A DNA stretch of 64,000 bases from Candidatus Rifleibacteriota bacterium (GCA_024710525.1 JANJUP010000022.1:64001-128000); one strand, 5' to 3'. Counted from the stretch's first letter, positions 12,627 through 63,333 are shown. Numbers and translations are program-made. The notes: generated by a model not told the origin, from the letters alone.

Positions 12627-13199
12627 ATGAAAAATCGATCTGACAGAAGTTCTTTAACGGCCGCAAGTAGCGGTTTTACGGTATTGGAACTCGTGGTTGT
12701 CGTCGGCATAATGGCTCTGCTGGCGGCAATGGTATTCGGCATGTTTTCTACGACCAGTTCCAACCAGCAGAAGGTTTCGACCGACATGCAGATGCAGGCA
12801 ATGATACTTAACTCGCAAAATCGCATCGTAAGAGCGGTCAGAGAAGGCATCGATTTTATTCTGCCCGAACTTGGTGGAGAGTCGGCTGCCCTCTTTTTTG
12901 CTGACAGTGAAAATAACATCAGGGTGCTCTATCAGCAGAAAGACGAAGAACTGTCAAAACGCACCGGCAAAACTTTGTACAAGCTCGTTCATCAAAAGGT
13001 TGAAACGAAAGGCTTTAATAGCAGCAGCCCGGCATCTGACCCGAAAATGTCCTCGACGGTTGCCGAGTATGTTAAAGACATCAAATTTCGCGTTTCAAGC
13101 GCCAATACGGTCAATGTTACCGCCAGTTTTGCGACCGAGCGCGCCGAATTTCAGACAATGTTCGAGATTGGCCTGCAGAATTCGGGAGTTGTTGAATGA
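12627..13199 (+). CDS. Prepilin-type N-terminal cleavage/methylation domain protein (pseudopilin)
   Basis: Class III signal: SSGFTVLELVVVVGIMALLAAMVF (G|FTVLE with E at +5). Confidence 0.7.
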   Translation: MKNRSDRSSLTAASSGFTVLELVVVVGIMALLAAMVFGMFSTTSSNQQKVSTDMQMQAMILNSQNRIVRAVREGIDFILPELGGESAALFFADSENNIRVLYQQKDEELSKRTGKTLYKLVHQKVETKGFNSSSPASDPKMSSTVAEYVKDIKFRVSSANTVNVTASFATERAEFQTMFEIGLQNSGVVE

Positions 13200-35587: not shown

Positions 35588-36215
35588 ACCCGTGCACCTG
35601 ATCATTGTCGGAACCGTCCATCTTGACCCCGATGGTTTTACGGCCCTCACAACGGCTATGAATAAATTCGCTCCCGATCTGGTTACGGTAGATGTCAGCA
35701 ATTATGCCGTTGAATTCAGGCGTTCCCGCTCTGCCGGTTTTCTCAGGCGCCTTGACGCTTTTCGCCGGCCAGACGGAAAATTGCCGCCGGCTCTGACGGC
35801 AGTTGAAGCCCAGCTGGCCGTGCCGTTCGAAGTCAGAGCCGCCGAAACATGGGGCGGAAAATTCATGCTGATCGGCAGCGACGACGATTCCCGGCAGCGC
35901 CTGTCGCTTCTTGAAAATGAATTGATGGTACCTGAAAATCTCAGCTTTCTGGCCGGCGAAAGCTCGCCCTGTCTGCAGACTCAGATACTGCGCCAGTGGG
36001 AAAAAGCCCGATCAGAATATCTGCGTCCCGGAGCAATTGAGCCCTGCGACAGCCGTATTGCCGATATTTTAAGGCACCTGGTCGCCGGTACAGGGGGGAT
36101 ATTATTGCATGTGACCGGCTGGCAGCACCTTGAGCCCCTTGCTGCCCTTCTGAAAGAGCTTTCACCCGAGTTGTATCTTCTCAGTTGTTTGAAAAATGAC
36201 TCGCAAAAACCGTGA
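35547..36215 (+). CDS. TraB/GumN-family-like protein
   Basis: HLIIVGTVHLDPDG ... PDLVTVDVS resembles the GTxH motif region of the TraB/GumN family. Start uncertain: ATG 35547 overlaps the M42 gene; alternative GTG at 35592. Confidence 0.4.
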   Translation: MAEPVSAALGRSVEPVHLIIVGTVHLDPDGFTALTTAMNKFAPDLVTVDVSNYAVEFRRSRSAGFLRRLDAFRRPDGKLPPALTAVEAQLAVPFEVRAAETWGGKFMLIGSDDDSRQRLSLLENELMVPENLSFLAGESSPCLQTQILRQWEKARSEYLRPGAIEPCDSRIADILRHLVAGTGGILLHVTGWQHLEPLAALLKELSPELYLLSCLKNDSQKP

Positions 36216-36370
36216 ATCAGCCATTTAAATTGGGCTATGATTCTCGTCATTTCCGGTTTTCACATTCTCAATAAATCAGTTAGACAAAATTGGAATTTGG
36301 AACATCTTTATGATTAAATATTTCTATACATAATAATTAGACAAAAAACGATCTTTTGCAGGAGGGGTTT

Positions 36371-37516
36371 ATGAATCCATTCTTAAAAGAGAAGAGAGTC
36401 CTTTTTTGTTCTGTTCTGGTATTGTTTCTTTTTCTGTTCTTTAGCGGGTTATCCCCGATTTTTGCCGCTGGGCGCCCCATCGGCCAGAGACCAGATAACC
36501 CCGGCAACATTGGCCAGAGACCAGATGATCCCGGCAACATTGGCCAGAGACCAGATAATCCCGGCAACATCGGCCAGAAACCAGGCAGGCCGGGTGACCC
36601 CAACCAGAAGCCGCACAAACCTGACAATCTCAACCAGAAACCAGACAAACTCGGTGACCTCAATCAGAAGCCGCATAAACCCGACAATCTCAACCAGAAA
36701 CCAGACAAACTCGGTGACCTCGGCCATAAGCCGCACAAGCCCGATCAGCTCGATCATAAAAAGCCGGATGTAGAAAAACTGAGAGCCGGAGATATCGGGC
36801 TGCAGATTGCCAATGACACGGATTTTGCTCTGACTGTGCGTGTATCTGCAGTTGATGCCTCAGAACGGGTAAATCTCGCGAAGGCAAAATCAATCACTCT
36901 GGCGCCGCATGCCCGTGAATCGGTCGTTCTTACGCCCATGAGTGCCGGCAAAGTCAGTCTTTCACCCATGAATGCAAAACATGAGGTCGAAAAAGACTCA
37001 AAGATCCTGTTGACCATAAACAGGGGCAAAGAAACCAGAAGACTGGTCGTTGATTATGCAAAAAGTGCCGGAATGATAGTTCTGGGCAAAGATCTTTTCC
37101 AGCAGGGGCATGAAACGGCGCACCGGGACGACCTCCAGTCTGACTCAGAAGATCCTGAAGAGCCGCAAAAAAATCCAGATGCTTCGAACAAGGGTCAGAT
37201 AGTTTATGTCATTAATCAGACCGGAATCCCGTTAAACTATAATGCCTTGCTGAAACCCGCCGGTTTTGACTCTGTGCAGGGCGAATTGAAGCCCGGGGCA
37301 AACGTTTTGAAATTCCCGGCTAAAAAAGTCGCCCAGGCTTTCTCCAAAGAGCCGGTCAGCCTTATTCTTCAAATGAAATACGATCTTCCCGGCAGCCCTG
37401 CGGTAAACTTTAAAAAGGAAGCATTGGACCTCGATTCGCATCCTACCGTAACCATTACGCGAACGATCATGGGTGAGCCGAAAGACCAGACTCAATCTCA
37501 GAAAAAACCCAGGTAA
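36371..37516 (+). CDS. Secreted proline/lysine-rich tandem-repeat protein
   Basis: GGAGGGG RBS then ATG at 36371; signal/TM segment. Repeats GQRPD[ND]PGNI x3, then NQKP[HD]KPDNLNQKPDKLGDL x2. Confidence 0.6.
   Translation: MNPFLKEKRVLFCSVLVLFLFLFFSGLSPIFAAGRPIGQRPDNPGNIGQRPDDPGNIGQRPDNPGNIGQKPGRPGDPNQKPHKPDNLNQKPDKLGDLNQKPHKPDNLNQKPDKLGDLGHKPHKPDQLDHKKPDVEKLRAGDIGLQIANDTDFALTVRVSAVDASERVNLAKAKSITLAPHARESVVLTPMSAGKVSLSPMNAKHEVEKDSKILLTINRGKETRRLVVDYAKSAGMIVLGKDLFQQGHETAHRDDLQSDSEDPEEPQKNPDASNKGQIVYVINQTGIPLNYNALLKPAGFDSVQGELKPGANVLKFPAKKVAQAFSKEPVSLILQMKYDLPGSPAVNFKKEALDLDSHPTVTITRTIMGEPKDQTQSQKKPR
36479..36760. repeat. Coding tandem DNA repeats: three 30-bp units followed by two 60-bp units
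   Basis: ggccagagaccagat[aa/ga]c/tcccggcaacat x3 (36479-36570). 36601-36660 and 36661-36720 are near-identical 60-mers. Confidence 0.8.
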
Positions 37517-37523
37517 CGACAGG

Positions 37524-37568
37524 CAGAGCCGAAGATTGCTCAAACAGCTTCTTCGGCTCTGTTCTTTG
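37524..37568 (+). terminator. Rho-independent terminator
   Basis: 11-bp perfect stem cagagccgaag / cttcggctctg followed by ttctttg. Confidence 0.6.
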
Positions 37569-37606
37569 CATCCTTTGTGAGATCAATTGCCGGGAAAAGA
37601 ATCAAA

Positions 37607-39148
37607 ATGACCCTTAAAAAAACTTCTGCCCTTCTGCTCTTTTTTGCCTTTCTGGTTTCTTTGCCTTTTACTGCCTTGAAGGCAGAAGATAACACTCAGA
37701 CAATCTCGCTGGCTGAGTGTGTTGCTCTGGTCATGCGCAGAAATACCTCGGTCAAACTGGCCTACATGGACCGGATTGTTCAGAAATATTCTTTTACAAC
37801 CACGGCTGATTATACTTTTAAACCTGATATAGACTGGCAGACTGCTTTGAGCCAGGCAGAGGCAAAGCAGACGGTTCCAGAAAATTCTTCTTCATTGAAC
37901 CGGTCGATCGGTTCATCTCTGCACCTGCGGCAAAATCTTCCCACCGGCGGAATCATCGGCATTCAATGGCAGCCATGGACTAAGGATCTCAGCAAAACAA
38001 GCCAGCCCATGATTTCTTCTGACGTCACTTCCCGGCAGGATTCATGGCGGTTGAATTTTTCTCAGCCTCTCGGAAAGTTTGCCGGGTCCAGAGTGGCAAA
38101 TCTTGTTGTCGACCAGGCCAGGCATCAGGAAAATCTTAATGTTCTTCAGCTCAAAGCAACGATTATCAATGCCGTTACTTCTGTCATTAAAGCCTACCGC
38201 CAGCTGCTTCTGGCAAAATGGGATATCGAGATCAATGAAGCAGCGCTTGAAAGGGCAAAAAACCTGCTTGAAAACAATAAAATTTTAATTGAAATGGGGA
38301 AAATGGCCGCCCAGGACATTATTCAGTCTGAATCTGACTGCGCCAACAAGGAGCTTGCCCTCGAAATTTCCAGGAATGCTTTTGACCAGGCGCGACTGGC
38401 ACTGCTGCAATTGCTCGATCTGAGTCGCGACCTGATGATTGAACCCGAAGATAAGATCGACATAGTTCCTTTCAGCTACACAGAAGACCAGATTTTTTCT
38501 CTGGCAAAGGCGAACCAGCCAGACTGGCTTTCGATGCTGATCTACCTTGAACTGGCACGCATGGAACTGATTCAGGCAAGGAGTGAGCAGAGGCTGGATG
38601 TGGCGCTTTCCGGCTCAATTGGAACTTCAAATACCCGTGGCGACATCACTGTTGATAATTCCGAAAAAGCCTGGGAACTCGGCGTTGTCGTCGATATCCC
38701 CATTTCAGGAAAAACACGACGGGAACTGAAAGGCAATCTGATCAAGGCCCAGGTCGACATGGACAAAGCGAACATTACCCTGCAGAAAGCCCTTGACGAC
38801 CTGGCAATCAATACCAAAGACCTGGTGCAGAGAACTAAGACTCTTGAAAAACAGATTGCTCTCGCTGAAAATGCTCGCAAACTTTCTGAAAAGAAGCTCG
38901 AAGTCGAGCTGATTAAACAGAAAACAGGAAGAAGCACAAACTTTCAGATCGTCACCTATCAGGATGAATTGCGCTCAGCCAGAATCAATGAGCTGAACGC
39001 CAAAATTTCCTATCTGAATTCATTGAGCGATCTGGATAAATTTATGGGAACAGTTCCTTTGACCTGGGGAATTGATCTGGCTTCGGCCCCGCAGCAGATT
39101 GAAAAATCAGATGAAAAAAAATCAATAAAATCAGAGAGCCGGCAATGA
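37607..39148 (+). CDS. TolC-family outer membrane efflux protein
   Basis: Signal peptide. Two coiled-coil/beta-barrel repeat halves typical of outer membrane factor proteins. Start overlaps the next gene (ATGA). Confidence 0.7.
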   Translation: MTLKKTSALLLFFAFLVSLPFTALKAEDNTQTISLAECVALVMRRNTSVKLAYMDRIVQKYSFTTTADYTFKPDIDWQTALSQAEAKQTVPENSSSLNRSIGSSLHLRQNLPTGGIIGIQWQPWTKDLSKTSQPMISSDVTSRQDSWRLNFSQPLGKFAGSRVANLVVDQARHQENLNVLQLKATIINAVTSVIKAYRQLLLAKWDIEINEAALERAKNLLENNKILIEMGKMAAQDIIQSESDCANKELALEISRNAFDQARLALLQLLDLSRDLMIEPEDKIDIVPFSYTEDQIFSLAKANQPDWLSMLIYLELARMELIQARSEQRLDVALSGSIGTSNTRGDITVDNSEKAWELGVVVDIPISGKTRRELKGNLIKAQVDMDKANITLQKALDDLAINTKDLVQRTKTLEKQIALAENARKLSEKKLEVELIKQKTGRSTNFQIVTYQDELRSARINELNAKISYLNSLSDLDKFMGTVPLTWGIDLASAPQQIEKSDEKKSIKSESRQ

Positions 39149-41199
39149 AAGATGAAAATGGGTCAGGTTTGCATGCCGTAAATGATCTGCAGAGTCTGGC
39201 GCAGATCGGTCTCGCCCTTTCGCAGGAGCATCAGCTTGGCGCGATTCTTGAAATGATCGTGAATGCCGCCCGCTCGATGACCAACGCGGATGCCGGAACT
39301 CTGTATATTCTTGATAGAGAAGCCAGATGCCTGCGTTTCTGCATAATGCAGAACGAAACGGCCAGAACGAAGATTAATGCCGTCACGAACCCTGATGCGC
39401 CAATTCCCGAGCCGGTTTCTTTATATATTGACGGCGCTCCGAACAACGCCAATGTCTCGTCATACGTGGCTCTAACCGGCGCGCCGGTGAATATTCCCGA
39501 TGTTTATTCTGCCCGGGGCTTCAACTTTTCAGGAGTTAAGCACTACGACTCCGTTTCCGGCTATCGTTCAAAATCGATGCTGGTAGTGCCGATGCGCGAC
39601 CACAACGACGACATAATCGGCATTCTGCAATTGCTGAATTCACAGATTGCCGGCACCGGTAAGGTTACTGAATTCTCTGAGCGCCACGAAGTGCTGGTCT
39701 CGTCCCTTGCATCTCAGGCCGCGGTAAGTATTACCAACCGACGCCTTATCTCGGGGATGCAGAAAGACCTCGAAGAGATTAAAAGGCTGCGACAGGCAGA
39801 GGAAGAACTCGGGGAAAAACTTAAAAAAGCATACCTTGAGACAGAAACGGCAAATGTCGAACTAAGGGCCGCAATGGCGCAGACCGGCGTTGTCAGAAAA
39901 GTCTGGATGTTGTTTGTGCTGGTTCTGATTCTGGTCGGCAGCGCCTGGAAAGGGCTTGAAACTGGCGTTCTCGGCACGGTTCTCTCTGAGACTGCACGCA
40001 ATGAAACGACTGAGAGCAGGGCGATCGAGACGGTAAGGGTCGCGAATTCCCCGGTTACGGCGAATCTGTCTTTTGTCGGGCAGATAGAGCCGCTGACCCA
40101 GAAGGTTTTTCTCAGCCCTTTCAGTGGCAAGGTCATTGAAAAATATTACCTGGAAGGGCAGCTGGTAAAAGCCGGTGATCCGCTTCTCAAAATCGACACG
40201 ACCGAACTCGAGATCAAGGTTCGCCAGGCGCGTTCCGCATTGATAAGAGCCAAAAAGGATCATATTCAAGTCAAAGAATGGGCAGCCGGGCCCCGGGTGA
40301 ATCAGGCCCGATTAACCCTGGCAAGGCAGAAAGCGATTCTTGATAATTTAAAAAGAAAACTCGATGAAGCGAAAGTCTTGTTTGATAAGGGCATCATTCC
40401 CGGGTCTGAACTGGAGTCTGCGGTAGAAGCTTTCGAAAATCAGAAGATAAGTGCTCAGGCTGCTGAAGATGAGGTTAAGAGTCTGCTGGCTCTTGGCAGC
40501 CACGATCAGTTGCTGATCGCAGGCATGGAACTGCAGAACGCGCAGGCTGAACTCGATGAGCTCGAAAATCAGCTGGCAAAGGCAGTTATAACCGCTGAAG
40601 GCGACGGTATTATTCTGCTTCCGGCCTCAGACGAGCAGAGACAGCAGGAACTCAAATCCATCGAAATCGGCAGCAAGGTTCAGCAGGGTGAAACGCTGGT
40701 TGTCATCGGTGATCTGTCTGGTTTAACCATTCGCACGAAGGTCGATGAAGTCAGCATCTCGAAGCTTTCGCTGAGCCAGCCTGTGCAGGTTACCAGCGAC
40801 GCTTTTCCTGAAATTGTTCTCGATGGCTGGATTTCTGCAATTTCATGCCAGGCCCTTGGCAGCGCTTCAGGCCGTTCATCCGGGGGCAAGCCGCCGGTTT
40901 TCGATGTGACGGTAACCGTAGACGAACTGTCTTTCGAGCAGCAGAGCAAAATAAGAATGGGAATGTCTGCAGTTCTCAACGTGACCGTTTATGATAATCC
41001 GGGTGCACTGGTGGTGCCGATTTCGGCGGTCGAGTCAGGTTATGGCTATGCGCAGGTCTATAAAAAGAATCCGCAGACACACAGTTTTGAAAAAGTTTCG
41101 ATAAGGGCTGGTATAACCACTCTCGATCAGGTCGAAATACTTTCCGGCCTGGCCCTCGATGACGAAATTGCCCTGTTTCCATATGAGGTCATGCAATGA
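39145..41199 (+). CDS. Membrane fusion protein (HlyD/MacA-like periplasmic adaptor) with an N-terminal cytoplasmic GAF domain
   Basis: Residues ~15-200 have a GAF-like fold signature (LAQIGLALSQEHQLGAILEMIVNAARSMTNADAGTLYILD...MLVVPMRDHNDDIIGILQLLN). TM helix VWMLFVLVLILVGSAW. Then HlyD-like coiled-coil, lipoyl and beta-barrel regions. Confidence 0.7.
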   Translation: MKDENGSGLHAVNDLQSLAQIGLALSQEHQLGAILEMIVNAARSMTNADAGTLYILDREARCLRFCIMQNETARTKINAVTNPDAPIPEPVSLYIDGAPNNANVSSYVALTGAPVNIPDVYSARGFNFSGVKHYDSVSGYRSKSMLVVPMRDHNDDIIGILQLLNSQIAGTGKVTEFSERHEVLVSSLASQAAVSITNRRLISGMQKDLEEIKRLRQAEEELGEKLKKAYLETETANVELRAAMAQTGVVRKVWMLFVLVLILVGSAWKGLETGVLGTVLSETARNETTESRAIETVRVANSPVTANLSFVGQIEPLTQKVFLSPFSGKVIEKYYLEGQLVKAGDPLLKIDTTELEIKVRQARSALIRAKKDHIQVKEWAAGPRVNQARLTLARQKAILDNLKRKLDEAKVLFDKGIIPGSELESAVEAFENQKISAQAAEDEVKSLLALGSHDQLLIAGMELQNAQAELDELENQLAKAVITAEGDGIILLPASDEQRQQELKSIEIGSKVQQGETLVVIGDLSGLTIRTKVDEVSISKLSLSQPVQVTSDAFPEIVLDGWISAISCQALGSASGRSSGGKPPVFDVTVTVDELSFEQQSKIRMGMSAVLNVTVYDNPGALVVPISAVESGYGYAQVYKKNPQTHSFEKVSIRAGITTLDQVEILSGLALDDEIALFPYEVMQ

Positions 41200-41906
41200 C
41201 TGAAAAATTGAACGCGCCGCCGGTGATTCAGCTCAGAGGCATAAAAAAGAATTTTCGTGTCGGAATTCTTGATCTGCCGGTCCTTAAAGGTATCGATCTC
41301 GATATCTACGATGGCGAAATGGCCGCAATAACCGGCACTTCAGGTGGCGGCAAGAGCACTTTGATGAATATCATCGGGTTGCTCGACGAACCCACTTCCG
41401 GCACTTATTCTTTTGCAGGCAGAGAAGTCGTAAATCTCGATGATGATGAATTGTCGGGCATAAGAAATGAAAAAATCGGCTTTGTGTTTCAGCAGTTCAA
41501 TCTTCTGCCGCGCCTGTCTGCCGCTGAAAATGTCGCTATCCCTCTTCTGTACCGTGGTGAATCGGTCAGAAGAAGCAGCGTGATCGCCAGATCTTTTCTC
41601 GAAAAGGTCGGAATGGGCGACCGGGCTGATCATAACCCGATGGAACTTTCCGGCGGCCAGCAGCAGCGTGTTGCAATTGCCAGGGCCCTTGCCGGCAATC
41701 CTTCGATAATACTGGCGGACGAGCCTACCGGAGCCCTGGATACCAGGGTTGGCCAGGAAATAATGGACCTTTTTTTGCGGCTCAACAAAGAAGATGGAAT
41801 TACCATCGTCATGATTACACATGACCCGAGAATCGCGGCGCAGTGTGAGAAGCGCTTCAATATCTGCGATGGGCTTGTTGAGAGCAGATCCGAGGCTGTT
41901 GCATGA
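41196..41906 (+). CDS. ABC transporter ATP-binding protein (MacB/LolD-type nucleotide-binding domain)
   Basis: Walker A GTSGGGKST, signature LSGGQQQRVAIARAL, Walker B ILADEPTGALD. Confidence 0.9.
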   Translation: MTEKLNAPPVIQLRGIKKNFRVGILDLPVLKGIDLDIYDGEMAAITGTSGGGKSTLMNIIGLLDEPTSGTYSFAGREVVNLDDDELSGIRNEKIGFVFQQFNLLPRLSAAENVAIPLLYRGESVRRSSVIARSFLEKVGMGDRADHNPMELSGGQQQRVAIARALAGNPSIILADEPTGALDTRVGQEIMDLFLRLNKEDGITIVMITHDPRIAAQCEKRFNICDGLVESRSEAVA

Positions 41907-43087
41907 AACTTTACTTATATTTTCGCGAGGCAACCAGAAGCCTTTTTTCGTCTCTGCAAAGAACTTTTCTGGCATTGCTGGGGATCGCCATCGGCATTGC
42001 GTCTGTTATTGCGATGGTGTCGATCGGTGAAATTGTCAAAGAAGAGGCGCTTCGCCAGTTTCAGGAACTGGGAACCGATTTTCTGGTGATATCGAACATT
42101 GCTGACGAAACAAAGACCGGTAATGGCATTGTTCAGCTTAAATCTACGCATTCGATTTCGCGCGCCTGCCCTTCATTGCGCGAATTTGCACCCTATTCGG
42201 TTGCGTTTGCCACGGTGGTCTGCTCAGGTAAATCCTGGGGCAGCCCGGTTCTTGGAATTACCGGGAATTTTCATGCCGTCAACCGGCTGATAATCGATAA
42301 AGGCCGACCATTATCTGAAATCGATCAGGAGATGAAAAACTGCGTAATCGGCGACAGAATTGCCCAACAAATGCGGCAGGTCGGCATTACCAACATGGTT
42401 GGTTCGAAGTTGCTGATTCTTGACCATATATTTACCATCGTTGGCGTGGTAAAACCGGCTTCCGAAAACTCCCTTCGGCCACAGGAAATAAATGAAGGGG
42501 TGATGGTTCCATATCTTACGCTTAAGCGCATTACAGGCACCGACCAGGTCACCGGGATAGTTGCCCGGTTAAGGAAGAATGTAAATGTTTCAGCGGCAGT
42601 AGAGCAGATTCAGGGCGTTTTCGATCAGATCGTCAAAGAAAGAAAACCCTATATTCAGACGGCGAGCGAACTGATCGGGCAGATGAATAAACAGATGAAC
42701 CTGTTGACCATGTTTTTCGGTATCGTTGGCTGCATCGCCCTTGTGGTCGGTGGCGTCGGCGTTATGAATGTCATGCTCGTTTCCGTTGCCGAAAGACGCC
42801 GTGAAATTGGCATAAGAAGAGCGCTCGGCGCAAAACGCCGCGATATTCAGGGACAGTTCATCGTTGAGGCTTCTTTGCTCTGCCTGTTTGGCGGCATCGC
42901 CGGGATCGCTCTCGGAATCGGCGGAGCCTACGGAATCTCAAGATTTCAGCACTGGTATTTTTTCATTTCCCGGACACCAATTCTGCTTGGTTTCGGCGTC
43001 TCGGCAATGGTCGGGCTGTTTTTTGGCTTTTACCCGGCCTGGCAGGCCGCAAGGCTTCGCCCAATCGAAGCCTTGCGGGCTAACTAG
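41903..43087 (+). CDS. ABC transporter permease, FtsX/MacB-type (4 TM, large periplasmic domain)
   Basis: N-terminal TM, large periplasmic domain, three C-terminal TM helices. Conserved RRREIGIRRALGA motif of the FtsX-like family. Confidence 0.85.
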   Translation: MKLYLYFREATRSLFSSLQRTFLALLGIAIGIASVIAMVSIGEIVKEEALRQFQELGTDFLVISNIADETKTGNGIVQLKSTHSISRACPSLREFAPYSVAFATVVCSGKSWGSPVLGITGNFHAVNRLIIDKGRPLSEIDQEMKNCVIGDRIAQQMRQVGITNMVGSKLLILDHIFTIVGVVKPASENSLRPQEINEGVMVPYLTLKRITGTDQVTGIVARLRKNVNVSAAVEQIQGVFDQIVKERKPYIQTASELIGQMNKQMNLLTMFFGIVGCIALVVGGVGVMNVMLVSVAERRREIGIRRALGAKRRDIQGQFIVEASLLCLFGGIAGIALGIGGAYGISRFQHWYFFISRTPILLGFGVSAMVGLFFGFYPAWQAARLRPIEALRAN

Positions 43088-43090
43088 CGG

Positions 43091-44257
43091 TTAATTTGCT
43101 GCCATTTCGGCGTATTTGCGGTAGAAAGCCGCGCGCTCGGCTGCGTTCGGAATCTCTTTGCGCGGCACGACCACGACATTCGGGCCCTGGGGCTTCGAAA
43201 ACGACTGTTCCATGAACATTTTCACGATTGCGGGCGGCACCGGGTAAAGAATGTCGAAGGGGTCCTGTTCGGCTTTGCCTTCGCGGATCGCTTTGGTGCG
43301 TTCCATGGTTCTTTCGGTGTTGGTCTGAATGAGATCGAGTATTTTGCAGACATTCGGACTCAGGCCTTTTCTATCGACCTTGTCGAGTGTGGTTCCCCAC
43401 AGGTTGATCGCTCTGAGTTCGTTGACTTCGCTGCTGGTGAGGCTGACAGTCGGTTCAAAATAAACCAGCTTCATGCGGTAGGGAATACCGGCATACAACG
43501 GGTCAGGGTTTTCCATGGTGATGGGTGAGCGATACTCGAGGTCGGTATTGACGCCGTTGTAGAAGACGCTGTAGCCACGGCTGAGATAGAGATCGGTCAT
43601 GCGGTTAACCACGAACCATGCCAGCGTGCTTTCCCAGGGGGCGAAGCAGGGGCCGAATTCCTTGAACAGCATGTATCTGATGTTGTCGCATGAGGCGTTA
43701 ACCACATTGCCCAGTTCATGGTAGAAGGTCGATTTGCCGCAGCCGGCCGCACCAATCGGAATGATGAGCTTCGGACTCGCAGAAGTGAGCGTCTTTTTGT
43801 TCCAGTTTTTATTTTCTTTCAGAGAAGCCGCGATAAAGGCTTCCATGTGCTCTTCGCCTTTTTTGAGAAGAAGGTTCGGATCCTGTTCGGTGATCTGGGC
43901 GATCAGAATGGCGAGATAGGTGTTGATTACGTGATAGGGGCTGAGTTTGAAGCAGAAGTCGAACTTTGCCAGGTCTTTTAAGGCCTTGTCAAAATCGGGT
44001 TCGGCTTTGATGAGATACTTCTTTTCTGCGGCATTTATCGCAAAAATCGGCCCGTTATACATGTTTTTAGCGTCTTTGAGCAGTTCTTTCGTGTCGCCTT
44101 CAGCTTTGGCAGCCTTGAGAATATTGGCGATACAGATGGTGATGTCTTTTTTCCAGATTATGTGTTCGTCGCTTTTGATAATCTCTGCCAGAGCCGGCAG
44201 TTTGTATTTCTCAGCGATCTGTCCGAAAATTTTTCTGGTTTCCTGGTTGGTGCTCAT
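43091..44257 (-). CDS. P-loop NTPase-domain protein (putative kinase-like) with N-terminal extension of unknown function
   Basis: Walker A IIPIGAAGCGKSTFYHEL. No other recognisable motif. Confidence 0.5.
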   Translation of the reverse strand: MSTNQETRKIFGQIAEKYKLPALAEIIKSDEHIIWKKDITICIANILKAAKAEGDTKELLKDAKNMYNGPIFAINAAEKKYLIKAEPDFDKALKDLAKFDFCFKLSPYHVINTYLAILIAQITEQDPNLLLKKGEEHMEAFIAASLKENKNWNKKTLTSASPKLIIPIGAAGCGKSTFYHELGNVVNASCDNIRYMLFKEFGPCFAPWESTLAWFVVNRMTDLYLSRGYSVFYNGVNTDLEYRSPITMENPDPLYAGIPYRMKLVYFEPTVSLTSSEVNELRAINLWGTTLDKVDRKGLSPNVCKILDLIQTNTERTMERTKAIREGKAEQDPFDILYPVPPAIVKMFMEQSFSKPQGPNVVVVPRKEIPNAAERAAFYRKYAEMAAN

Positions 44258-44424
44258 TAATCTTCCCTTTCTTTTGCAAAGCTGCTTGTAAAAGTAATTT
44301 CATACTGACAGGCAATCATTGCCGAATCTCAATTCCGGCCGATGCCAAAATTTTCTCAATCATTATACCCGATACGAATCGTTTCCGGAATTATCCGATT
44401 TTTTGGGCGATTGTAATGATTCTG

Positions 44425-44453
44425 TTGTCTATAAGTCCATATAGGGCTATATT
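44425..44453 (+). promoter_or_regulatory. Sigma-70-like promoter (TTGTCT-17-TATATT) within a ~55-bp motif shared with the promoter at 56974-57002
   Basis: TTGTCT 44425-44430, TATATT 44448-44453. Extended identity tgttgtctataagtc ... ctatattaccagc with the second locus. Confidence 0.55.
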
Positions 44454-44507
44454 ACCAGCATAGACAATTTTGCGGGGTTGCCCCGGAAGGATTTTAAAGG
44501 AAATATC

Positions 44508-45749
44508 ATGAACCGACTTACCGTTTTATTTTGTGCTGTAGTTTGCGCCATGGCGATGGCATTGTCTGCTTCCCCTGCATCAGCAGGATCAGGTTGTTGT
44601 CCTGTTCCCCCGGTATCAACAGAACAGCCGGCAGATCTTTCGTTGAACACCCTGGTAAAAGGCAACAGCGCCTTTGCCGTAAAGCTTTATCAGCAGCTGG
44701 GCGCCTCCGGTGGCAACCTTTTCTTTTCGCCATTCAGCGTCTCCTCTGCTCTCGGCATGACCTATGCAGGCGCCCGCGAAAATACTGCCACAGAAATGCA
44801 GGCCGCCATGTCTTTCGGGCTCGATCAGGAACCGCTGCACGACGCGTTCAGACAGCTTAACCAGAAACTGGCTTCAGCGGCCAACAACGACGGTCAGAAA
44901 CTCAACATCGCCAACGGTCTCTGCCTCACCGGCGGTGACGTGAGCGAAGAATTCAAAGCCCTGCTGACGAAAAGCTACGAGGCTGAGCTGTTCGCGGGCG
45001 ACCTTGAAAAAATCAACGGCTGGGTAAAAGCAAAAACCGAGGGCAAAATCGAAAAAATCCTCGAAATGCTAGATCCAAACTCAGTCTGCGTTCTTCTGAA
45101 TGCCATTTATTTCAAAGGCATCTGGGAAAGCCAGTTCGACGAAAAACAGACCAAAGAAGCCCCTTTCAGATTGTCTGAAACAGAAAATGTCCAGGTTCCA
45201 TTCATGTATCAGAAGGGCAGCTACCGGCTCATCGAAAAAGATGATTTTCAGGCCATTGCCATGCCCTATAAGGGAAAAGCGCTGGCAATGATCGCAGTGC
45301 TGCCGCAGAAAGTCGACGGCCTCGCCAGTCTCGAAAAAGACCTGAGCCCGGAAAAAGTCGAAGCATGGCTCACCGAACTGGACGCTGCTTCTGAACAGGA
45401 TGTCAAACTGTATCTGCCAAAATTCAAGCTCGAAACCGGCTACGATCTGGTTCCCGCCTGTACCGCCCTCGGCATGAAAGATGCTTTTGCTCCGGCCGCC
45501 GCCGATTTCACCGGCATGGGCTGGCCAAAAGGCAAATTATGGATCTCGCAGATCAAGCATAAAGCTTTTGTCGAAGTGAACGAAGAAGGCACCGAAGCCG
45601 CCGCCGCCACCGCCGTCGAAATGGCCACAAAATCGATCAGCATGGACCCGGTTTTTAAAGCCGACCACCCCTTCATCTTCATGATCCGCGACAACTCAAC
45701 CGGCAGCCTCCTCTTCATGGGCCGCATCACCAACCCCGCCAGCAAATAA
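44508..45749 (+). CDS. Serpin (serine protease inhibitor), secreted
   Basis: AAAGG RBS then ATG at 44508; signal peptide. Serpin signatures FSPFSVSSALGMTYAGARENTATEM and C-terminal HPFIFMIRDNSTGSLLFMGRITNP. A reactive centre loop precedes. Confidence 0.85.
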   Translation: MNRLTVLFCAVVCAMAMALSASPASAGSGCCPVPPVSTEQPADLSLNTLVKGNSAFAVKLYQQLGASGGNLFFSPFSVSSALGMTYAGARENTATEMQAAMSFGLDQEPLHDAFRQLNQKLASAANNDGQKLNIANGLCLTGGDVSEEFKALLTKSYEAELFAGDLEKINGWVKAKTEGKIEKILEMLDPNSVCVLLNAIYFKGIWESQFDEKQTKEAPFRLSETENVQVPFMYQKGSYRLIEKDDFQAIAMPYKGKALAMIAVLPQKVDGLASLEKDLSPEKVEAWLTELDAASEQDVKLYLPKFKLETGYDLVPACTALGMKDAFAPAAADFTGMGWPKGKLWISQIKHKAFVEVNEEGTEAAAATAVEMATKSISMDPVFKADHPFIFMIRDNSTGSLLFMGRITNPASK

Positions 45750-49272: not shown

Positions 49273-52200
49273 TTAAAACCAGCCGGTAATGGTATCCCAT
49301 GCGCCTTTGGCAATGTTTTCCATGGTGTCGGCAACCTTACTGGCAATTTTCTCAGCATTGCTGGCAAGATCTTTGGCAGTGCTGGCGGCAAGCTTTGCAC
49401 CGCTCTCAGCGACATTTTTGACGGTCTCGGCCTTCTTGGCCGCCTCATTTTTGATATTTTTCCAGTTTTCTTCCGGCGACCGGCCAAAAGTGTTTATCAG
49501 TTCTTTGCCCACGTCTTCGCCAAGTTCTGCAATGCTTTTACAGGCGTTATCCATAAAAGCCAGAGGGTCTTTGACCAGATCTTCAGCAATCTTGATAACC
49601 TTTGCAGCAATGGCTTCCGTCAGCTTGTTTTTCAGGCCGGTATCCGAAATGGCTGCCGGAGTGGTTACCGTAAAGCCCATACCAAAAGCTGAACAGACAA
49701 CTTTCACCTCAGGCAGTTTTCCTTTGGCAAAATCGTCGAGAGAGCCGCTTACTTTTATACTTCTGATCTTCAGAATCGAATCGCCAACCAGCTTGACTGC
49801 GGCCTTTATGACATCATTGTTGCCAACTTTCCCGATTACCTGTTTTTCGATATCTTCGACAAAGTCGCTTTTTGCTTCACCAGAACAGTAAAGGCTGCCG
49901 CCCTTGCTGATATCTTTCAGCAGCGAATGGTCGCCCTTTCCGGTAATGTTAATGTTGAAGGCCGACCCCAGGTCGCCAGTCAGATCGACTTTCAGGCTGT
50001 CTTTGGCGGCGTCGAGAAAGATGTTCATGCGGGCCTTGAGAATATCGACGCGGCCGCTGATGTAACAACGCTGTTCGAGGGTGTATGGCGGTTTCGTCAG
50101 GGGCCAGTATTCGATGTCGATAGCCGGGCCGTCATCACTGGTCGAATCTTTTTTGTCAGCACCTGCGCCAGAAATGCCAAGGTCGCCGATTTTGAAACCC
50201 CTTATCCAGGCCTTGCATCTGACGCCTTCTTCTGCGGCCATCCAGAAGTCTGTGCCGCCAAGGTCGGTGGCGCCAAGTGCCAGAATCCCTTTAACAGTAA
50301 GCCCCTTCTGAATGTTCAGGGCCGGGATATCGATTTCGGAAATACAGAACTCAGGATCTTTGATTTTCAGTTCATCAATCGGCAGGTCGATTAGCTTTAA
50401 ATCAGGAATTTTTACTTTTGGCAGTGCCAGTTTCAGCAGTATGCCATGCATTTTGATCAGATCGCCAAGGCTCAGGTCGCGATCTAGCTTGAATTTTAAT
50501 GCCGAAATGGCAACTGGCGAAGAAAAAGAAAGCGCACCGGAAAAGTCAAAACAGAACCCGTCGCCCATGTCGATGACACCGCCCAGAGCCAGGTTCGGCA
50601 GTTTGCCAAAATTGCCGCTGATCGCCATGTTGCCGATTGAAAGGCCCTTTATGCCGAATGGATTTTTCCAGATCCCCGGAATGAGGCCGGAAACTGAAAT
50701 TCCATCCAGAGGGTTGCAACCCAGCGGAAAAGCTAACTGAAGCGGCAGTGAAAGTTTCAGTTGTTTTGACAAATTCAGATCCAGGTCTGCCAGAATGTTG
50801 ATTCCCTGAAACTTTCCGACGCCGATTTCCAGATACTGAACCAGCAGCTTCAAATACTTCCAGTCAGGGAGAAATTTGGGCAGAAAGCCGTCACGCAACC
50901 TGGCTCTGAGTTTGACCGGTTCATCTTTTTCCGGCGGAAAAACCGCGGTAAAAATGACAGTTGGTGGTGCGGCCTTCAAAACAGAAAAAGACTCGGTCAG
51001 AACGCTGTTATCTTTGGCACTGGCAGCCAGCCAGGCGTTTTCGCCCTTGTCAAAATTGAAGACAGTGCTGTTGTCGCCAGAAAACTCTTTAAAACTGTCT
51101 CTTATCTGGTCAGGCAATTCGTCGAAAGCCCATTCATGCTCTTCACTCGCATAGGTTACCGCTGTTTGCGAGAACTTGAGCTGGCTAAGGGGCTTTTCAT
51201 TCATGCCAGGCAGCCGGCTTAAAACTTTTTCAGTTGGAACCAGCGCCACAAAGCCAGTGCGCAGACCCTGTTCTTTGTATAAGCGCGACAGAACCATGAT
51301 TTTGCCAGAAATCTCGCCAAACCGGTTGAAATTCAGTTTCGCATCGCCGCTCAGGCACATCCATGGCTGACCCTTTTCATCACCGGCAGCAATTTCGCCC
51401 TGACTGAAAACAGCATTATCCACTTCAACACCCTTGATGAAGGGCAGCTGATTCAACCCGGGAACGGTATCCAGGCTTACTTTTCCACCAGCGGCCGTGA
51501 TTTTTTTAATGCTGTCAGTAAAAGAGCGGCTCGAGAATTCAACTTTTGTTAAGGCATGGGTCGCAGTTGTGCCGCCCTCAAGGGTCTCAGAACTGCCGTC
51601 AAGCTCTGAACCCTTTTTTTGAGCACTCTGTGCCTGTTCGATCTTTTTGTTCAGCTCGCCGGCACTGGCAGTCAACTCCTGCTGTTGCTGCAGGTAAAGA
51701 TCGGCAACCTTCTGCTGCGTCAGCGCTATTATGGCATTACGAACCAGACTTACATAGCCGTTATAGGCGTCGTTGTAGGCATCCTGACCGGAAAGGCCTT
51801 TGATAACATATGCCGGGGCAACTGGTTTGTCATTATAGTTGTCTCTGACGTGAAATGTATTGGTCACCAGAAATGGGAGTGAGGCATTCTTATCATCAAC
51901 CGTCTGCGACCAGACCGCGCAGTCTTTTTTGGCGCCCGATTTTTTATCGGTCCAGATATGCCCGATGTATCTGCCCGGCAAAATGAGGTCAGACCTGACG
52001 CAGCGCATGATGCCCAGATCGGTTGGTTTTGCGTGACTCCTTTGTGTAACGACTCCGAGAGAGACATAGCCTTTGGGCGGCACCGGATACCAGAAAGAGC
52101 CATCCCAGTCAGCGCCTGATTTTTTGTCATCCCAGAGCCAGGTGTAATCTGTGGGTTTTGCCAGAAACGGGCCTTTTTCATCGCCGGCAGGATTGTTGTC

Positions 52201-52767
52201 ATCCCACTTAACCATCAACGCAGGAACCTTCGGGCTGTCTGTCGACATCGAATCAACAGCGATGTCACCCAGGCTTACCCAGCCATTAGGCCGAAATGGT
52301 CTCCAGACACCAAGATCCATGGCGCCGCCTGTGCCTTTATCGCGCCAGATCATTTCGTATGACCAGGTGTAAGCACAACGCAGATGAGGTGTCAGAATGG
52401 TGTTTTCTTCAAGCTGCTGTGCTATTTTTTTTAATGCGTCTTCGTAAATCTTTTTAAAAGGATTCGAGCTCTGGGGCGATTTTTGAGCATCCGGCTTAAC
52501 TTCGGGCACCAGCTTTTTTAAAGTGTTTTCACGTATTTTTTCAACAACATTCAAACTTCGGGTCGATTTTATAGGACCCTTCTTTGAACCGGGCGTCATG
52601 GACATCGACCGCTCTACTCCAGAGGCCTTCTCAATACTTTGAGGATTTGTGAGCACCTTGCCCATGGCTTCGCCGAAAGCGCTTGGCGCCTGGGCCTCGC
52701 AGACCCCGGTCACAGATAAAAAGAGCGCAAACCCACAAAGCGGGAACAGATAATTTTTTAACGGCAA
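49273..52767 (-). CDS. Very large secreted protein (1164 aa) with N-terminal Vps62/DUF946-like repeats
   Basis: Signal peptide MPLKNYLFPLCGFALFLSVTGVCEA. Three repeats of W.DK.[ST]G...D...W.P..P.G[WY]VSLG.[IV]. Lys/Ala-rich coiled-coil-like C-terminus. Confidence 0.5.
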   Translation of the reverse strand: MPLKNYLFPLCGFALFLSVTGVCEAQAPSAFGEAMGKVLTNPQSIEKASGVERSMSMTPGSKKGPIKSTRSLNVVEKIRENTLKKLVPEVKPDAQKSPQSSNPFKKIYEDALKKIAQQLEENTILTPHLRCAYTWSYEMIWRDKGTGGAMDLGVWRPFRPNGWVSLGDIAVDSMSTDSPKVPALMVKWDDNNPAGDEKGPFLAKPTDYTWLWDDKKSGADWDGSFWYPVPPKGYVSLGVVTQRSHAKPTDLGIMRCVRSDLILPGRYIGHIWTDKKSGAKKDCAVWSQTVDDKNASLPFLVTNTFHVRDNYNDKPVAPAYVIKGLSGQDAYNDAYNGYVSLVRNAIIALTQQKVADLYLQQQQELTASAGELNKKIEQAQSAQKKGSELDGSSETLEGGTTATHALTKVEFSSRSFTDSIKKITAAGGKVSLDTVPGLNQLPFIKGVEVDNAVFSQGEIAAGDEKGQPWMCLSGDAKLNFNRFGEISGKIMVLSRLYKEQGLRTGFVALVPTEKVLSRLPGMNEKPLSQLKFSQTAVTYASEEHEWAFDELPDQIRDSFKEFSGDNSTVFNFDKGENAWLAASAKDNSVLTESFSVLKAAPPTVIFTAVFPPEKDEPVKLRARLRDGFLPKFLPDWKYLKLLVQYLEIGVGKFQGINILADLDLNLSKQLKLSLPLQLAFPLGCNPLDGISVSGLIPGIWKNPFGIKGLSIGNMAISGNFGKLPNLALGGVIDMGDGFCFDFSGALSFSSPVAISALKFKLDRDLSLGDLIKMHGILLKLALPKVKIPDLKLIDLPIDELKIKDPEFCISEIDIPALNIQKGLTVKGILALGATDLGGTDFWMAAEEGVRCKAWIRGFKIGDLGISGAGADKKDSTSDDGPAIDIEYWPLTKPPYTLEQRCYISGRVDILKARMNIFLDAAKDSLKVDLTGDLGSAFNINITGKGDHSLLKDISKGGSLYCSGEAKSDFVEDIEKQVIGKVGNNDVIKAAVKLVGDSILKIRSIKVSGSLDDFAKGKLPEVKVVCSAFGMGFTVTTPAAISDTGLKNKLTEAIAAKVIKIAEDLVKDPLAFMDNACKSIAELGEDVGKELINTFGRSPEENWKNIKNEAAKKAETVKNVAESGAKLAASTAKDLASNAEKIASKVADTMENIAKGAWDTITGWF

Positions 52768-53895: not shown

Positions 53896-56800
53896 TTGTT
53901 ATCTCATCTTCTGAGCCTTGTTCAAGAAAAAAATCTTGAAAAATCAGCTCTGCAATTTACTGCCATCCTGGAAAAGCTTTTTCCTGAAACCCGTTTTGCA
54001 TTTATCCCGACTGGTGAACCTGCACCGAATGACGGTTTTCCGATCGAAACGCCCGGAAGACATTATGGCTGGCTTTCCATTGCCGGTTATTCTGCATTGG
54101 CCAATGAACAGCTGAAGCTTATTGCAGATGCAGCGCGGGTGTATGCAGTTATCGTCGAGAACAACGCGACAGAATCAACTCTGAGTTACGAAGAGTTGCG
54201 CCGGGAAAACGAGCAGCTTCGTAATGAGCTGATCAGGTATCGGCAGGTTGATAACGAATTGCGTGAAAGCCAGGAGATTTTTTCCACTTTCATGGAGCAT
54301 AACCCTGCCTACGTTTTTTTCAAGGATGAGAATCTGCGGGCCATCAGATTAAGTAGAAACTACGAGCAGATGCTGGGCCGGCCTCTTTCGGAACTCCTGA
54401 ATAAGACAAGCGATGAGTTGTTTCCGGAAGAGCTTGCAAAGCCTATGATTGCTGCTGACCGCAGTATTCTTGATGAAGGCAGAGCTGTTACGATTGAAGA
54501 AGAATTTAATGGCCGCTTTTATTCAACTTTAAAATTTCCGATCAAAATTGCTGGCCGGCCGAGCCATCTGGCCGGTTTTACCATTGATATCACCAGGCTT
54601 AAACTCGCAGAAAAAGCATTGCGCGAGAGTGAAGCCATGCTTGCCCGCTCGCAGCAGATCGCACATGTTGGCAGCTGGGTTCTTGACCTGACAATTGACC
54701 AGCTCATCTGGTCTGAAGAGACTTATCGAATTTTCGGCATAAATTCACACGATTTTGTGCTGTCTTTTGCGGCCTTTCTGGAAACCGTCCACCCTGACGA
54801 CCGTAATGCCCTTGAAGCCATGTATTTATCTTCTTTCAGAGAAAACCAGGCTGGTTATGAAATTGAACACCGGATTATTCGCCAGGATAATCGTGAAGTT
54901 CGATATGTCCTGGAAAAGTGTTTTCATGAGCGCAATAAAGACGGAGAAGTTGTTCGCTCGGTAGGCATAGTTCAGGATATTACCGGGCGCAAGCTCGCCG
55001 AAGAAGAGTTACGCAGGGCAATAGCTATTGCTGAAGAGAATGAGACCCGTTTTAAGGCCCTTCATAATGCTTCTTTTGGTGGTATTGCCATTCACGATAA
55101 AGGGATTATTCTTGACTGCAATCAGGGGTTGTCTGAAATCACCGGCTACCCGGTAGATGAATTGATTGGCATGGATGGCCTGCTGTTAATAGCTGAAAAG
55201 TCCCGAGACATGGTTAGAGCTCATATCAGAGAAGGGTATGAAAAGCCTTACGAAGGAATCGGGCGGCGTAAGAACGGTGAAGAGTTTCCATTGCGTCTGG
55301 AAGCTCGTGAAATCCCTTACCGGGGTCGGCGGGTAAGAAGTGTAGAATTCAGGGATATAACCGAACAGAAAAGAGCCGAGTCTGTGCTTGCTGCAGAAAA
55401 AGAGCGTCTGGCAGTAACCCTGCGCAGCATTGGTGATGGGGTTATCACAACCGATACTCAGGGAAATGTCATAATGATGAACAGGGTTGCCGAGGATCTC
55501 ACCGGCTGGCAGCAGCACGAAGCTCAGGGCCTGCCACTCGATAATATTTTCAGGATCATCAATGAAAAGACGCGTGAGCCTGCCGAAAACCCGGTAGCAA
55601 AAGTGATTGCATCAGGAAGTATCATCGAGCTGGCAAACCATACTTTGCTGATTTCCCGAAACGGTGCCGAATTAAATATTGCCGACAGTGGCGCTCCGAT
55701 TAAGGATGCCAGCGGTATTATCATTGGTGTGGTGCTGGTTTTTCGCGATATGACCGAGAAACAGAAACTTCTGGACTCGTTGCAGAGAACTGACAAGCTT
55801 GAAGCCATAGGGGTTCTGGCAGGTGGGATCGCGCATGATTTTAATAATCTGCTGTCGGGGATTTTCAGTTATATCGAACTTGCCCGCATGGCTACTGATC
55901 CAAAAAAGATCGCCAGCTATCTTGATCAGGCTCTGGTAGTTTTTGACCGCGCCAAAAACCTGACGAGCCAGCTTCTTGCGTTTGCCAAAGGTGGCGCGCC
56001 AAAACGAAAGACAGGCGATCTTGGGCTGGTGGTCAAAGAAGCTGCCATGTTTGCTCTATCTGGCTCGTCGATTACCTGTAAATTCGATATTGCTGAAGAT
56101 TTGTGGGCGGCTGATTTTGACAAGGGCCAGATTGAACAGGTCATCGATAACCTGATTATTAATGCCCAGCAGGCAATGCCTGTCGGCGGCATGATTACTA
56201 TAAGAGGCCGGAATTATGTTGCCAGAGATGGCGAAAACCCGCTGCTCAAACCTGGTAAATATATCAGGATTTCTGTTGCCGATACTGGCATTGGCATGCC
56301 AGCCAGCCTTCTTAAAAGAATTTTCGACCCGTTTTTTACCACAAAACAGAAGGGTAATGGCCTCGGGCTGACAACCTGCTATGCCATCATTCAGAAGCAT
56401 GCCGGCATGATCGATGTCGAATCGGTAATTGGAGAGGGGGCGACTTTTCATGTTTTTATACCGGCTTCAAGCAACGTGCCTGACACCAAAGATCATTCCG
56501 CGCCGGTTTCCCATGTCGGGCATGGCCGGATACTGATTATGGATGACGAAGAGTTTCTCAGGAACATAGTCGGCATCCTGCTTCGGGAAATGGGCTACCA
56601 GGTTGTCGAGGCCAGAAACGGTGAAGAAGCGGTAAGGCTGCTTACTGAACCCGGTGCGCCTGTAATAGATGCCGCCATTTTTGATTTGACCATTCCCGGC
56701 GGCATGGGTGGCAAGGACGCGATTGTACAGGTGCGCAAAAAATTGCCTGACCTGGTTGTTTTTGTTTCGAGTGGCTATTCAGAAGATCCTGTCATGGCGC

Positions 56801-63061: not shown

Positions 63062-63333
63062 TGAATTCACCTTCAGACCAGAATTTTTTTTTGAATCAGA
63101 ATACAGTATAAGAAGAAAAGGCGCTGACAGCAATTACAGCAAACCATAGTCGCCATCCGCGCGTCGGCGAGAATCATGCTCTGAACGTTAAGACGGCATT
63201 CCAGTGCTTTTTCCAGTGGATTAGAGTCAAGTCTATTCAAATGCTGACGCGTGATGTATAGTTTCCACATCTTTTGTCTGAAACCAGATTTTTAAATCAG
63301 AGTGGTCGGTTGCCCGGCCAGGGAGATATTGCC

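Follow-up and report, generated by a model that had tools for sequence, protein, structure and literature searches.

Why would the periplasmic adaptor of an export pump carry a sensor domain in the cytoplasm? The question is raised by four genes at positions 37607-43087 of a 64,000-nucleotide stretch of DNA from a Candidatus Rifleibacteriota bacterium (GCA_024710525.1, JANJUP010000022.1:64001-128000; the whole stretch is called the window here). By its predicted function, the locus is a tripartite envelope exporter of the MacAB-TolC type, and its adaptor, a membrane fusion protein (MFP), begins with a GAF domain. Regulation of tripartite pumps is known mainly at the level of transcription, and the adaptor is seen as a periplasmic bridge and a stimulator of the ATPase. 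We consider the architecture, a four-gene MacAB-TolC-like set with a cytoplasmic GAF domain on the MFP, to be established. That the MFP works as a receiver in the style of a one-component system, in which a cytoplasmic ligand would gate a MacAB-type pump, is plausible and is the reading towards which we lean.

The four pump genes

All four genes lie on the plus strand. They encode, in order, an outer membrane factor (OMF) of the TolC family (37607-39148; 513 aa, open reading frame called from an ATG), the MFP (39145-41199; 684 aa), a nucleotide-binding domain protein (NBD) of the MacB/LolD type of ABC ATPase (41196-41906; 236 aa) and a MacB-type permease of the type VII ABC class (41903-43087; 394 aa). 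Each of the three junctions (OMF/MFP, MFP/NBD and NBD/permease) is a 4-nt ATGA overlap. An earlier note on this DNA had already read the genes as an OMF, a 684-aa MFP, an NBD and an FtsX-type permease joined by three ATGA overlaps, and both the open reading frames and Pfam agree. The OMF has an alternative open start, the GTG at 37577; from the ATG at 37607 the protein begins with a canonical Sec signal peptide, in which inspection found no lipobox cysteine. Scanning 35900-44500 for promoters and terminators gave counts no better than those of shuffled sequence, which is uninformative on the operon boundaries, and tblastn within the window found no second GAF or MFP paralogue.

The OMF matches Pfam OEP over two stretches (2.6e-26) and NCBIfam TIGR01844 (TolC; 5.8e-19, under the curated cut-off); its TolC and NodT subfamily scores both lie below the curated cut-offs, so this assignment is made at the family level only. 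The NBD matches Pfam ABC_tran (1.3e-32) and, in NCBIfam, the MacB NBD region (1.5e-74) and LolD (1.6e-68). Its motifs are intact: Walker A (GTSGGGKST), the Q-loop, the signature (LSGGQQQR), Walker B with the catalytic Glu (ILADEPTGALD) and the H-loop (ITHD). The permease combines a periplasmic core domain with the FtsX module of four transmembrane (TM) helices (Pfam MacB_PCD, 2e-29; FtsX, 5.8e-21), and among solved structures it is nearest to MacB 5gko (1.9e-49, residues 7-392), followed by 5lil (5.4e-43) and 5nik (2.6e-41). For NBD and permease alike, the greatest NCBIfam similarity is to the two MacB halves.

Besides its GAF domain, the MFP matches Pfam HlyD_3, HlyD_D23 and Biotin_lipoyl_2, and its NCBIfam RND_mfp score (98.8 bits) exceeds the cut-off of 94.9. 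The periplasmic body (40018-41196, plus strand) comprises membrane-proximal, beta-barrel and lipoyl domains and a long alpha-hairpin, as read from AlphaFold2 (AF2) secondary structure and Pfam; the hairpin helices span residues ~353-414 and ~420-478 in the model. The nearest solved sequence to this part is A. actinomycetemcomitans MacA (4dk0, E 2.1e-7). In the full-length AF2 model (predicted local distance difference test, pLDDT, 80.8), a disordered stretch of ~25 residues follows the TM helix and leads into a standard adaptor body.

The locus thus resembles the MacAB-TolC pumps represented by 5nik, 5gko, 5lil and 4dk0 (E. coli, A. baumannii and A. actinomycetemcomitans) in having an OMF, an adaptor with one TM helix, a permease with MacB_PCD and FtsX, and a MacB/LolD-type ATPase. 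It differs in that ATPase and permease, which are fused in E. coli MacB, are separate polypeptides here. The adaptor has a cytoplasmic extension of ~248 aa (GAF plus coiled coil) rather than a short tail, and its hairpin helices are longer, with ~60 residues apiece in the model.

In topology the MFP also resembles HlyD (N-terminus in the cytoplasm, one TM helix, long alpha-hairpin), and it has a weak match to NCBIfam type_I_hlyD (1.5e-13). This raises the possibility of a system akin to type I secretion, in which the GAF domain would provide a docking platform for cargo, as in the N-terminal cytoplasmic part of HlyD. We regard this as very unlikely. The cytoplasmic part of HlyD is ~60 aa with no sensor fold, and its ABC partner is an exporter of the type I secretion system (T1SS); the permease here, unlike a six-TM T1SS exporter, belongs to the MacB/FtsX type and has a periplasmic core domain. 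MacB-type transporters are thought to take their substrates from the periplasm or the outer leaflet, and the conserved protein encoded upstream of the OMF (see below) bears a Sec signal peptide. Membership of the T1SS family itself was rejected on the MacB type of the permease and on the type_I_hlyD score, which at 50.5 bits is far under its cut-off of 208.65.

The GAF domain and its helical link to the membrane

The GAF domain occupies MFP residues ~4-200 (39154-39744, plus strand). Pfam PF01590 matches residues 31-196 at 1.3e-14 (55.3 bits against a cut-off of 22.4). An AF2 model of residues 1-232, built from 53 sequences, reached a pLDDT of 88.2 and a predicted template modelling score of 0.79 and has the canonical layout: a pair of helices at the N-terminus, a sheet of six strands, two short helices and, at the C-terminus, one long helix. 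A Foldseek search of the PDB with this model returned solely GAF domains at probability 1.00 (>50 structures). The top matches were the cAMP-binding tandem GAF of CyaB2 (1ykd, 6e-13) and the GAF-HD-GYP protein PmGH (4mcw, 1e-12), and further matches at the same probability included PDE5A, PDE2A, PDE10A and the cAMP-bound GAF of Lcd1. In a sequence search of the PDB, the PDE5 GAF (2.6e-18) and CyaB2 (8.8e-12) were found, with PmGH distant at 3.8e-8. The N-terminus that the earlier note called GAF-like therefore models as a GAF domain.

Within a family of 21 members whose overall identity falls to 37%, the GAF domain is the most conserved region of the MFP. Its strongest conservation is clustered in beta3-alpha4-beta4, where D119, Y121, F126, G130, D135, Y140 and S144 are invariant. 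The conserved beta3-alpha4 segment aligns to a stretch of PDE5 GAF-A, in which the corresponding region has been called the lid of the cGMP site (PMC11977230). Between beta2 and beta3, an insertion of ~25 aa (residues ~79-103) with conserved Pro, Gly and Asn is common to the whole subfamily, and one sub-clade carries a further-extended form of it.

The MFP GAF is also 47-57% identical to the GAF domains of hundreds of GAF-HD-GYP proteins from Desulfobacterota, Calditrichia, Nitrospinota and other groups, with alignments that cover MFP residues ~12-215 only. In those c-di-GMP phosphodiesterases, the same GAF subfamily is the N-terminal sensor. Pfam found no HD or HD_5 match in the window MFP; the GAF alone is common to both kinds of protein. 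Judged by sequence and by predicted fold, the N-terminal domain is a true GAF from the HD-GYP-associated subfamily, probably of the cyclic nucleotide monophosphate (cNMP) type. The PmGH dimer is formed via its GAF and the long alpha5 helix that follows (PMC4159591) and so provides a structural model for the cytoplasmic part of the MFP. In both systems the GAF is followed by a long helix, dimerising in PmGH, that leads to the output; the output of the MFP is a TM helix and a periplasmic adaptor, whereas that of PmGH is an HD-GYP hydrolase.

A helical, coiled-coil-like linker of ~48 aa (39745-39888, plus strand), recognised from the AF2 model, its heptad pattern and a motif, connects the GAF to the single TM helix (residues 249-267; 39889-39945, plus strand), whose N-terminus lies inside. 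The TM helix was placed by hydropathy and is the sole Kyte-Doolittle peak at or above 1.6 in the MFP (2.15). The MFP has no N-terminal signal peptide, and its periplasmic domains come after the TM helix. The earlier note was right about the single TM helix and short in its estimate of ~200 aa before it; the cytoplasmic part measures ~248 aa, made up of the GAF (~4-200) and the ~48-aa linker. In the full-length AF2 model, one unbroken helix (residues 179-268) runs from the GAF C-helix via the linker into the TM helix.

Two features of the linker bear on what it may do. In its dominant heptad register, 10 of 14 a/d positions are hydrophobic, and it ends near the membrane in a conserved motif, L-K/R-x-A-Y-x3-E-x2-N-x2-L, that is common to MFPs with a GAF and MFPs with a PAS domain. 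Linker length was measured between two anchors, each a small local hidden Markov model (HMM), one on the GAF C-helix and one on the juxtamembrane motif. Among 26 homologues the spacing is 44 aa in 22, 30 in 2 and 23 in 2, so that all differences are multiples of 7. Two homologues (P0122 and P0124) are short of exactly 14 linker residues, and two others (P0028 and P0029) of exactly 21, which is three heptads and can be seen in the alignment at columns ~250-270. Lengths that vary by whole heptads are what a phase-preserving signalling coiled coil would predict, and the pattern suggests that the linker is one.

Spread of sensor-bearing adaptors and their gene neighbourhoods

How widespread is this arrangement? 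The window MFP is 100% identical to a public protein encoded on a 446-kb contig, 82% identical to a protein of Candidatus Rifleibacterium amylolyticum, 57% to a Wallbacteria protein and ~48% to Ozemobacteraceae proteins. Matches to the GAF-MFP over its full length come from ~39 clusters (36-93% identity). They come from at least 4 phylum-level groups, and the holders include Riflebacteria, Wallbacteria, Syntrophobacteria and Nitrospirae metagenome-assembled genomes (MAGs). A scan of GTDB, with one genome per species and patterns placed in the GAF so that mostly GAF-HD-GYP genes were recovered, gave the full-length GAF-MFP in five genomes: two Riflebacteria MAGs and one MAG each labelled Erysipelotrichia, Syntrophobacteria and Nitrospirae. 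The Erysipelotrichia-labelled copy (L011, SABV01000145.1) is 84% identical to the window MFP. Because it is so close to the Riflebacteria copies, we suspect a binning error rather than horizontal transfer.

This spread bears on whether the GAF-MFP reading frame might be an error of assembly or annotation, or else a functionless, accidental fusion of recent origin. The rarity of the GAF-MFP architecture among characterised adaptors is all that speaks for such an origin, and we give it next to no weight. Identical or near-identical proteins occur on several contigs, and conservation extends to the reading frame, the length of the linker and the operon. An assembly artefact in particular was rejected on the full-length homologues found on many independent contigs.

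Cluster representatives, 1.84 billion in all, were searched exhaustively with HMMER. Ranking next after the GAF-MFP family were MFPs of 575-650 aa that are 30-40% identical over residues ~205-676 and whose N-termini resemble PAS or another GAF type. A survey of MFP homologues for N-terminal GAF fusions had been suggested in the earlier note, and in addition to the ~39 clusters it turned up a wider set. Among the best 80 of 131 MFP representatives, Pfam finds HlyD in all 80, PAS in 46, GAF in 25 and cNMP_binding in 1 (P0156), and tandem sensors occur in P0122 (PAS-GAF-MFP) and P0208 (GAF-PAS-MFP). When 151 sequences were sorted with local HMMs, 68 had PAS, 25 the query-type GAF, 24 another GAF and 2 a tandem array; the remaining 32 had no sensor and are mostly short or truncated proteins. 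The sensor types are interleaved on a neighbour-joining tree of the periplasmic parts, albeit a crude one, and this distribution suggests that sensors have been exchanged repeatedly on a shared chassis of coiled coil, TM helix and adaptor. Databases label members of the clade 'PAS domain S-box protein' or 'GAF domain-containing protein'; named relatives include a 'PAS domain S-box protein [Desulfobotulus mexicanus]' and the 'efflux RND transporter periplasmic adaptor subunit' of Desulfuromonadales and Gammaproteobacteria MAGs. One further relative, P0047 (387 aa, from a 2.9-kb ENA contig), is 86% identical to the window GAF region and has HTH_23 and HTH_32 (transposase-like) in place of the adaptor; it is probably the GAF-MFP gene of a close relative broken by an insertion sequence.

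Could the GAF and coiled coil be a structural module that binds no ligand, which dimerises or anchors the adaptors or docks on the ATPases and takes in no signal? GAF domains dimerise in PmGH and in PDE2A GAF-A (PMC4159591), the GAF of PmGH has no known ligand (bioRxiv 10.1101/2021.11.05.467447), and a motif typical of cNMP-binding GAFs, NKFDE, is incomplete in the MFP GAF. Nevertheless, conservation in the MFP peaks in the pocket-flanking beta3-alpha4 and not just in the dimer helices. In homologues, PAS or a CAP-type cNMP-binding domain stands in place of the GAF, a pattern typical of interchangeable sensors and not of a fixed scaffold, and conventional MacA-type adaptors assemble without any such part. 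We therefore think a purely structural role improbable, though it merits more consideration than a docking platform or an artefact.

The gene neighbourhood of the sensor-MFPs was compared at nine distinct related loci (two more, L002 and L005, are duplicates of L001 and L004). Sensor-MFP genes stand beside genes for an ABC ATPase and a MacB-type permease in 8 of the 9, usually with an OMF as well, and OMF orthologues lie 5' of the sensor-MFP in L001, L003, L006-L009 and L090. The order OMF, sensor-MFP, ABC, permease is found in Wallbacteria (L001), on a JGI metagenome contig (L003, 40% identity), in D. mexicanus and a Gammaproteobacteria MAG (L006 and L007, both of the PAS type) and in R. amylolyticum (L008). 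In Ozemobacteraceae (L009) an extra 877-aa gene intervenes between OMF and MFP, and in GCA_025352565.1 (L090) an OMF and a GAF/PAS-MFP are accompanied by convergent ABC and permease genes. An ENA metagenome contig (L004, 36% identity) has no adjacent OMF, and a Logan metagenome contig (L091) has a GAF-MFP with no adjacent ABC genes. The best matches of all four window proteins fall at these related loci, and their identities co-vary.

Individual loci show additions to the set. In L003 (5759-7987) the OMF is fused to a peptidoglycan-binding SPOR domain in a protein of 742 aa. The 877-aa gene of L009 (4366-6999) has a faint FixG_C match only, and a 550-aa gene with no assignment follows the permease there. 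In L004, the most divergent of the GAF-MFP loci, a gene for apolipoprotein N-acyltransferase (Lnt; 12143-13717) lies directly 3' of the permease gene, which hints at a link to lipoproteins or envelope lipids in that lineage.

Upstream of the pump in the window, a gene at 36356-37516 (plus strand; probable true start ATG 36371) ends 90 bp before the OMF start. Its translation has no Pfam match and consists of a Sec signal peptide, short tandem repeats (GQRPDNPGNI three times, then NQKPHKPDNL and NQKPDKLGDL, of the NQKPxKPDNL type) and a C-terminal domain of ~240 aa. A homologue lies directly 5' of the OMF in L008 (54% identity across 390 aa), and L001 has a weakly similar one there (25%, E 2e-5). 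The product is possibly an accessory protein, a cargo or a fifth member of the operon; membership is uncertain and we offer it as a lead only.

The compared loci also bear on the direction of signalling. A linker of this kind could transmit either way, and MacB-type transporters operate through mechanotransmission that involves large movements in the periplasm. The adaptor might report the state of the pump in the periplasm, such as substrate load or engagement of the OMF, with the GAF serving as output through binding of a partner protein or a nucleotide; this would resemble flux sensing of the BceAB type. However, in nearly every characterised architecture, GAF-HD-GYP proteins among them, GAF, PAS and cNMP-binding domains serve as inputs at the N-terminus, and the compared loci contain no conserved candidate gene for a cytoplasmic partner. 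Signalling in this reverse direction appears to us quite unlikely.

A possible route of gating, and the surrounding genes

We return to the reading that a cytoplasmic ligand gates the pump. Four observations strengthen it: no other part of the MFP is as well conserved as the GAF, the GAF belongs to the cNMP/HD-GYP subfamily, the heptad phase of the linker is kept, and PAS or cNMP-binding domains take the same position in homologues. The GAF would sit in the cytoplasm, probably as parallel dimers as in PmGH, and binding of a cytoplasmic ligand would alter the packing or rotation of the helix pair that follows it. A ligand-driven change in the packing of the terminal helices has been described for PDE5 GAF-A (PMC11977230). 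The change could then be carried via the coiled coil and the TM helix to the contact between adaptor and permease or to the membrane-proximal domain, where stimulation of the ATPase, or assembly with the outer membrane channel, would be switched on or off. The ligand would most likely be a cyclic mono- or dinucleotide or a related nucleotide. The GAF-HD-GYP protein Tlr0485 reportedly requires cAMP (bioRxiv 10.1101/2021.11.05.467447). We count cAMP among the candidates because this is the sole experimental precedent in a GAF-HD-GYP protein.

What is known of related adaptors indicates where the sensors could lie. A MacA hexamer surrounds the MacB dimer, MacA stimulates the MacB ATPase, and the cytoplasmic tail of HlyD is required for its function. 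By analogy, three GAF dimers would hang close to the ATPases, at a depth of ~7 nm (~49 helical residues) under the membrane.

Several points weigh against this reading. MFPs act as hexamers, as is known for MacA, and GAF domains dimerise, so three dimers around two NBDs are a conjecture. To our knowledge, there is no experimental precedent for a MacAB-type pump that is regulated via the cytoplasmic end of its adaptor. No ligand is assigned to the MFP GAF, nor is one known for the GAF of PmGH (bioRxiv 10.1101/2021.11.05.467447). The heptad argument rests on two independent length variants only, and the GAF-MFP of L091 has no ABC genes beside it. Finally, the GAF retains the NKFDE motif of cNMP-binding GAFs, N-K-Xn-F-X3-D-E (PMC11977230), only in part: N165 and F177 never vary within the family, conservation does not extend to Lys and Glu, and the Asp position (F+4) is His181 in the window MFP and Asp in most relatives. 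Taking F177 as the motif Phe presumes a shift of 3 residues in the beta5-beta6 loop; the ungapped HMMER alignment puts Val174 there. The earlier note had proposed ligand-gated control of the pump from the cytoplasmic side. The anatomy this calls for, an operon and a cytoplasmic GAF, stands, while we infer the gating itself, and the same applies to ligand binding, the identity of the ligand, the direction and sign of the signalling, and the transported substrate.

Is such a receptor without precedent? The closest conceptual precedent is Alg44 of P. aeruginosa alginate export, which has a cytoplasmic PilZ domain that binds c-di-GMP, one TM helix and a periplasmic MexA-like domain, and in which ligand binding is needed for export-coupled function; alginate production depends on Alg44 (PMC3815931). 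The order of second-messenger receptor, TM helix and MFP-like domain is the same, a likeness of topology. In Alg44, however, the sensor is PilZ rather than GAF, and the partners are Alg8, a glycosyltransferase, and a polysaccharide porin in place of a MacB-type ABC transporter and TolC. Pfam found no PilZ in the window MFP, and no Pfam match of a scanned neighbour points to a glycosyltransferase. Proteins with GAF, HlyD and Biotin_lipoyl have also been noted in SecA_DEAD / Peptidase_M50 loci and read as regulatory or sensory (PLoS One 2015, PMC4452313). Those loci differ in containing a secondary SecA_DEAD and Peptidase_M50, with no MacB-type partner described; neither domain turned up in Pfam scans of the genes neighbouring the pump in the window.

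A literature search, thin on subscription journals, found no published work on sensor-MFPs in MacAB-type pumps, and PMC4452313 is the only mention of GAF+HlyD that it found. A mention of GAF in Haft et al. 2010 proved to have no bearing on the sensor-MFP architecture. The earlier note's description of the architecture as possibly undescribed thus holds in so far as no paper on MacAB-type sensor-MFPs was found, but it has to be narrowed in view of Alg44, PMC4452313 and a sizeable clade that is already annotated in databases. Alg44 already provides an example of a second-messenger receptor joined to a periplasmic domain of the adaptor kind; GAF, PAS and cNMP sensors on MacB-type pumps, and the clade that carries them, appear to be uncharacterised.

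A conserved clade with interchangeable cytoplasmic sensors on a phase-preserving coiled coil would imply direct post-translational gating of MacAB-type pumps. If this is true, a second messenger or metabolite would gate export via a phase-sensitive coiled coil and the adaptor TM helix, and the Alg44 paradigm would be extended from polysaccharide synthases to ABC-driven envelope exporters. Because the window GAF belongs to the subfamily found on HD-GYP phosphodiesterases, export (perhaps of the upstream repeat protein, or of another envelope or matrix component) would also be tied to the nucleotide signal that controls c-di-GMP turnover. Conversely, sensor-MFPs offer a route to the ligand of a widespread GAF subfamily on HD-GYP phosphodiesterases, and with a soluble GAF domain of ~200 aa the gating idea is directly testable. 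More broadly, sensor-bearing adaptors with GAF, PAS, cNMP or tandem domains may form a general class of one-component transducers with a MacB-type pump as output, a generalisation that we hold tentatively.

Other genes of the window were recorded alongside the pump. Neighbours with Pfam matches encode an AraC-type regulator, an M42 peptidase, a serpin, a beta-lactamase-fold protein and a periplasmic binding protein, and several others have no Pfam match. Convergent to the permease gene, with stops 3 bp apart, is a gene for a 388-aa P-loop protein (43091-44257, minus strand; GAAGCGKST) that has no Pfam match and no tblastn match in the related loci. Just 3' of the pump locus lies the gene for the serpin, which is a full-length bacterial one (44478-45749, plus strand; Pfam Serpin 9.6e-114), and around it in the window are many peptidase genes (M42, M60, S9 and M1-like). 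The sole Pfam match of a 1164-aa protein (49273-52767, minus strand) is a Vps62-like domain (1.1e-15). The Vps62 family is defined by its description as one of (eukaryotic) vacuolar sorting proteins, which makes the match unusual for a bacterium. A 612-aa protein (61295-63133, minus strand) consists almost wholly of ankyrin repeats (Ank_2, 1.2e-80). Lastly, a hybrid sensor kinase of 1002 aa (53896-56904, plus strand), with at least 3 PAS domains, HisKA, HATPase_c and a receiver, has no relation to the pump and shows a signalling repertoire rich in PAS domains.

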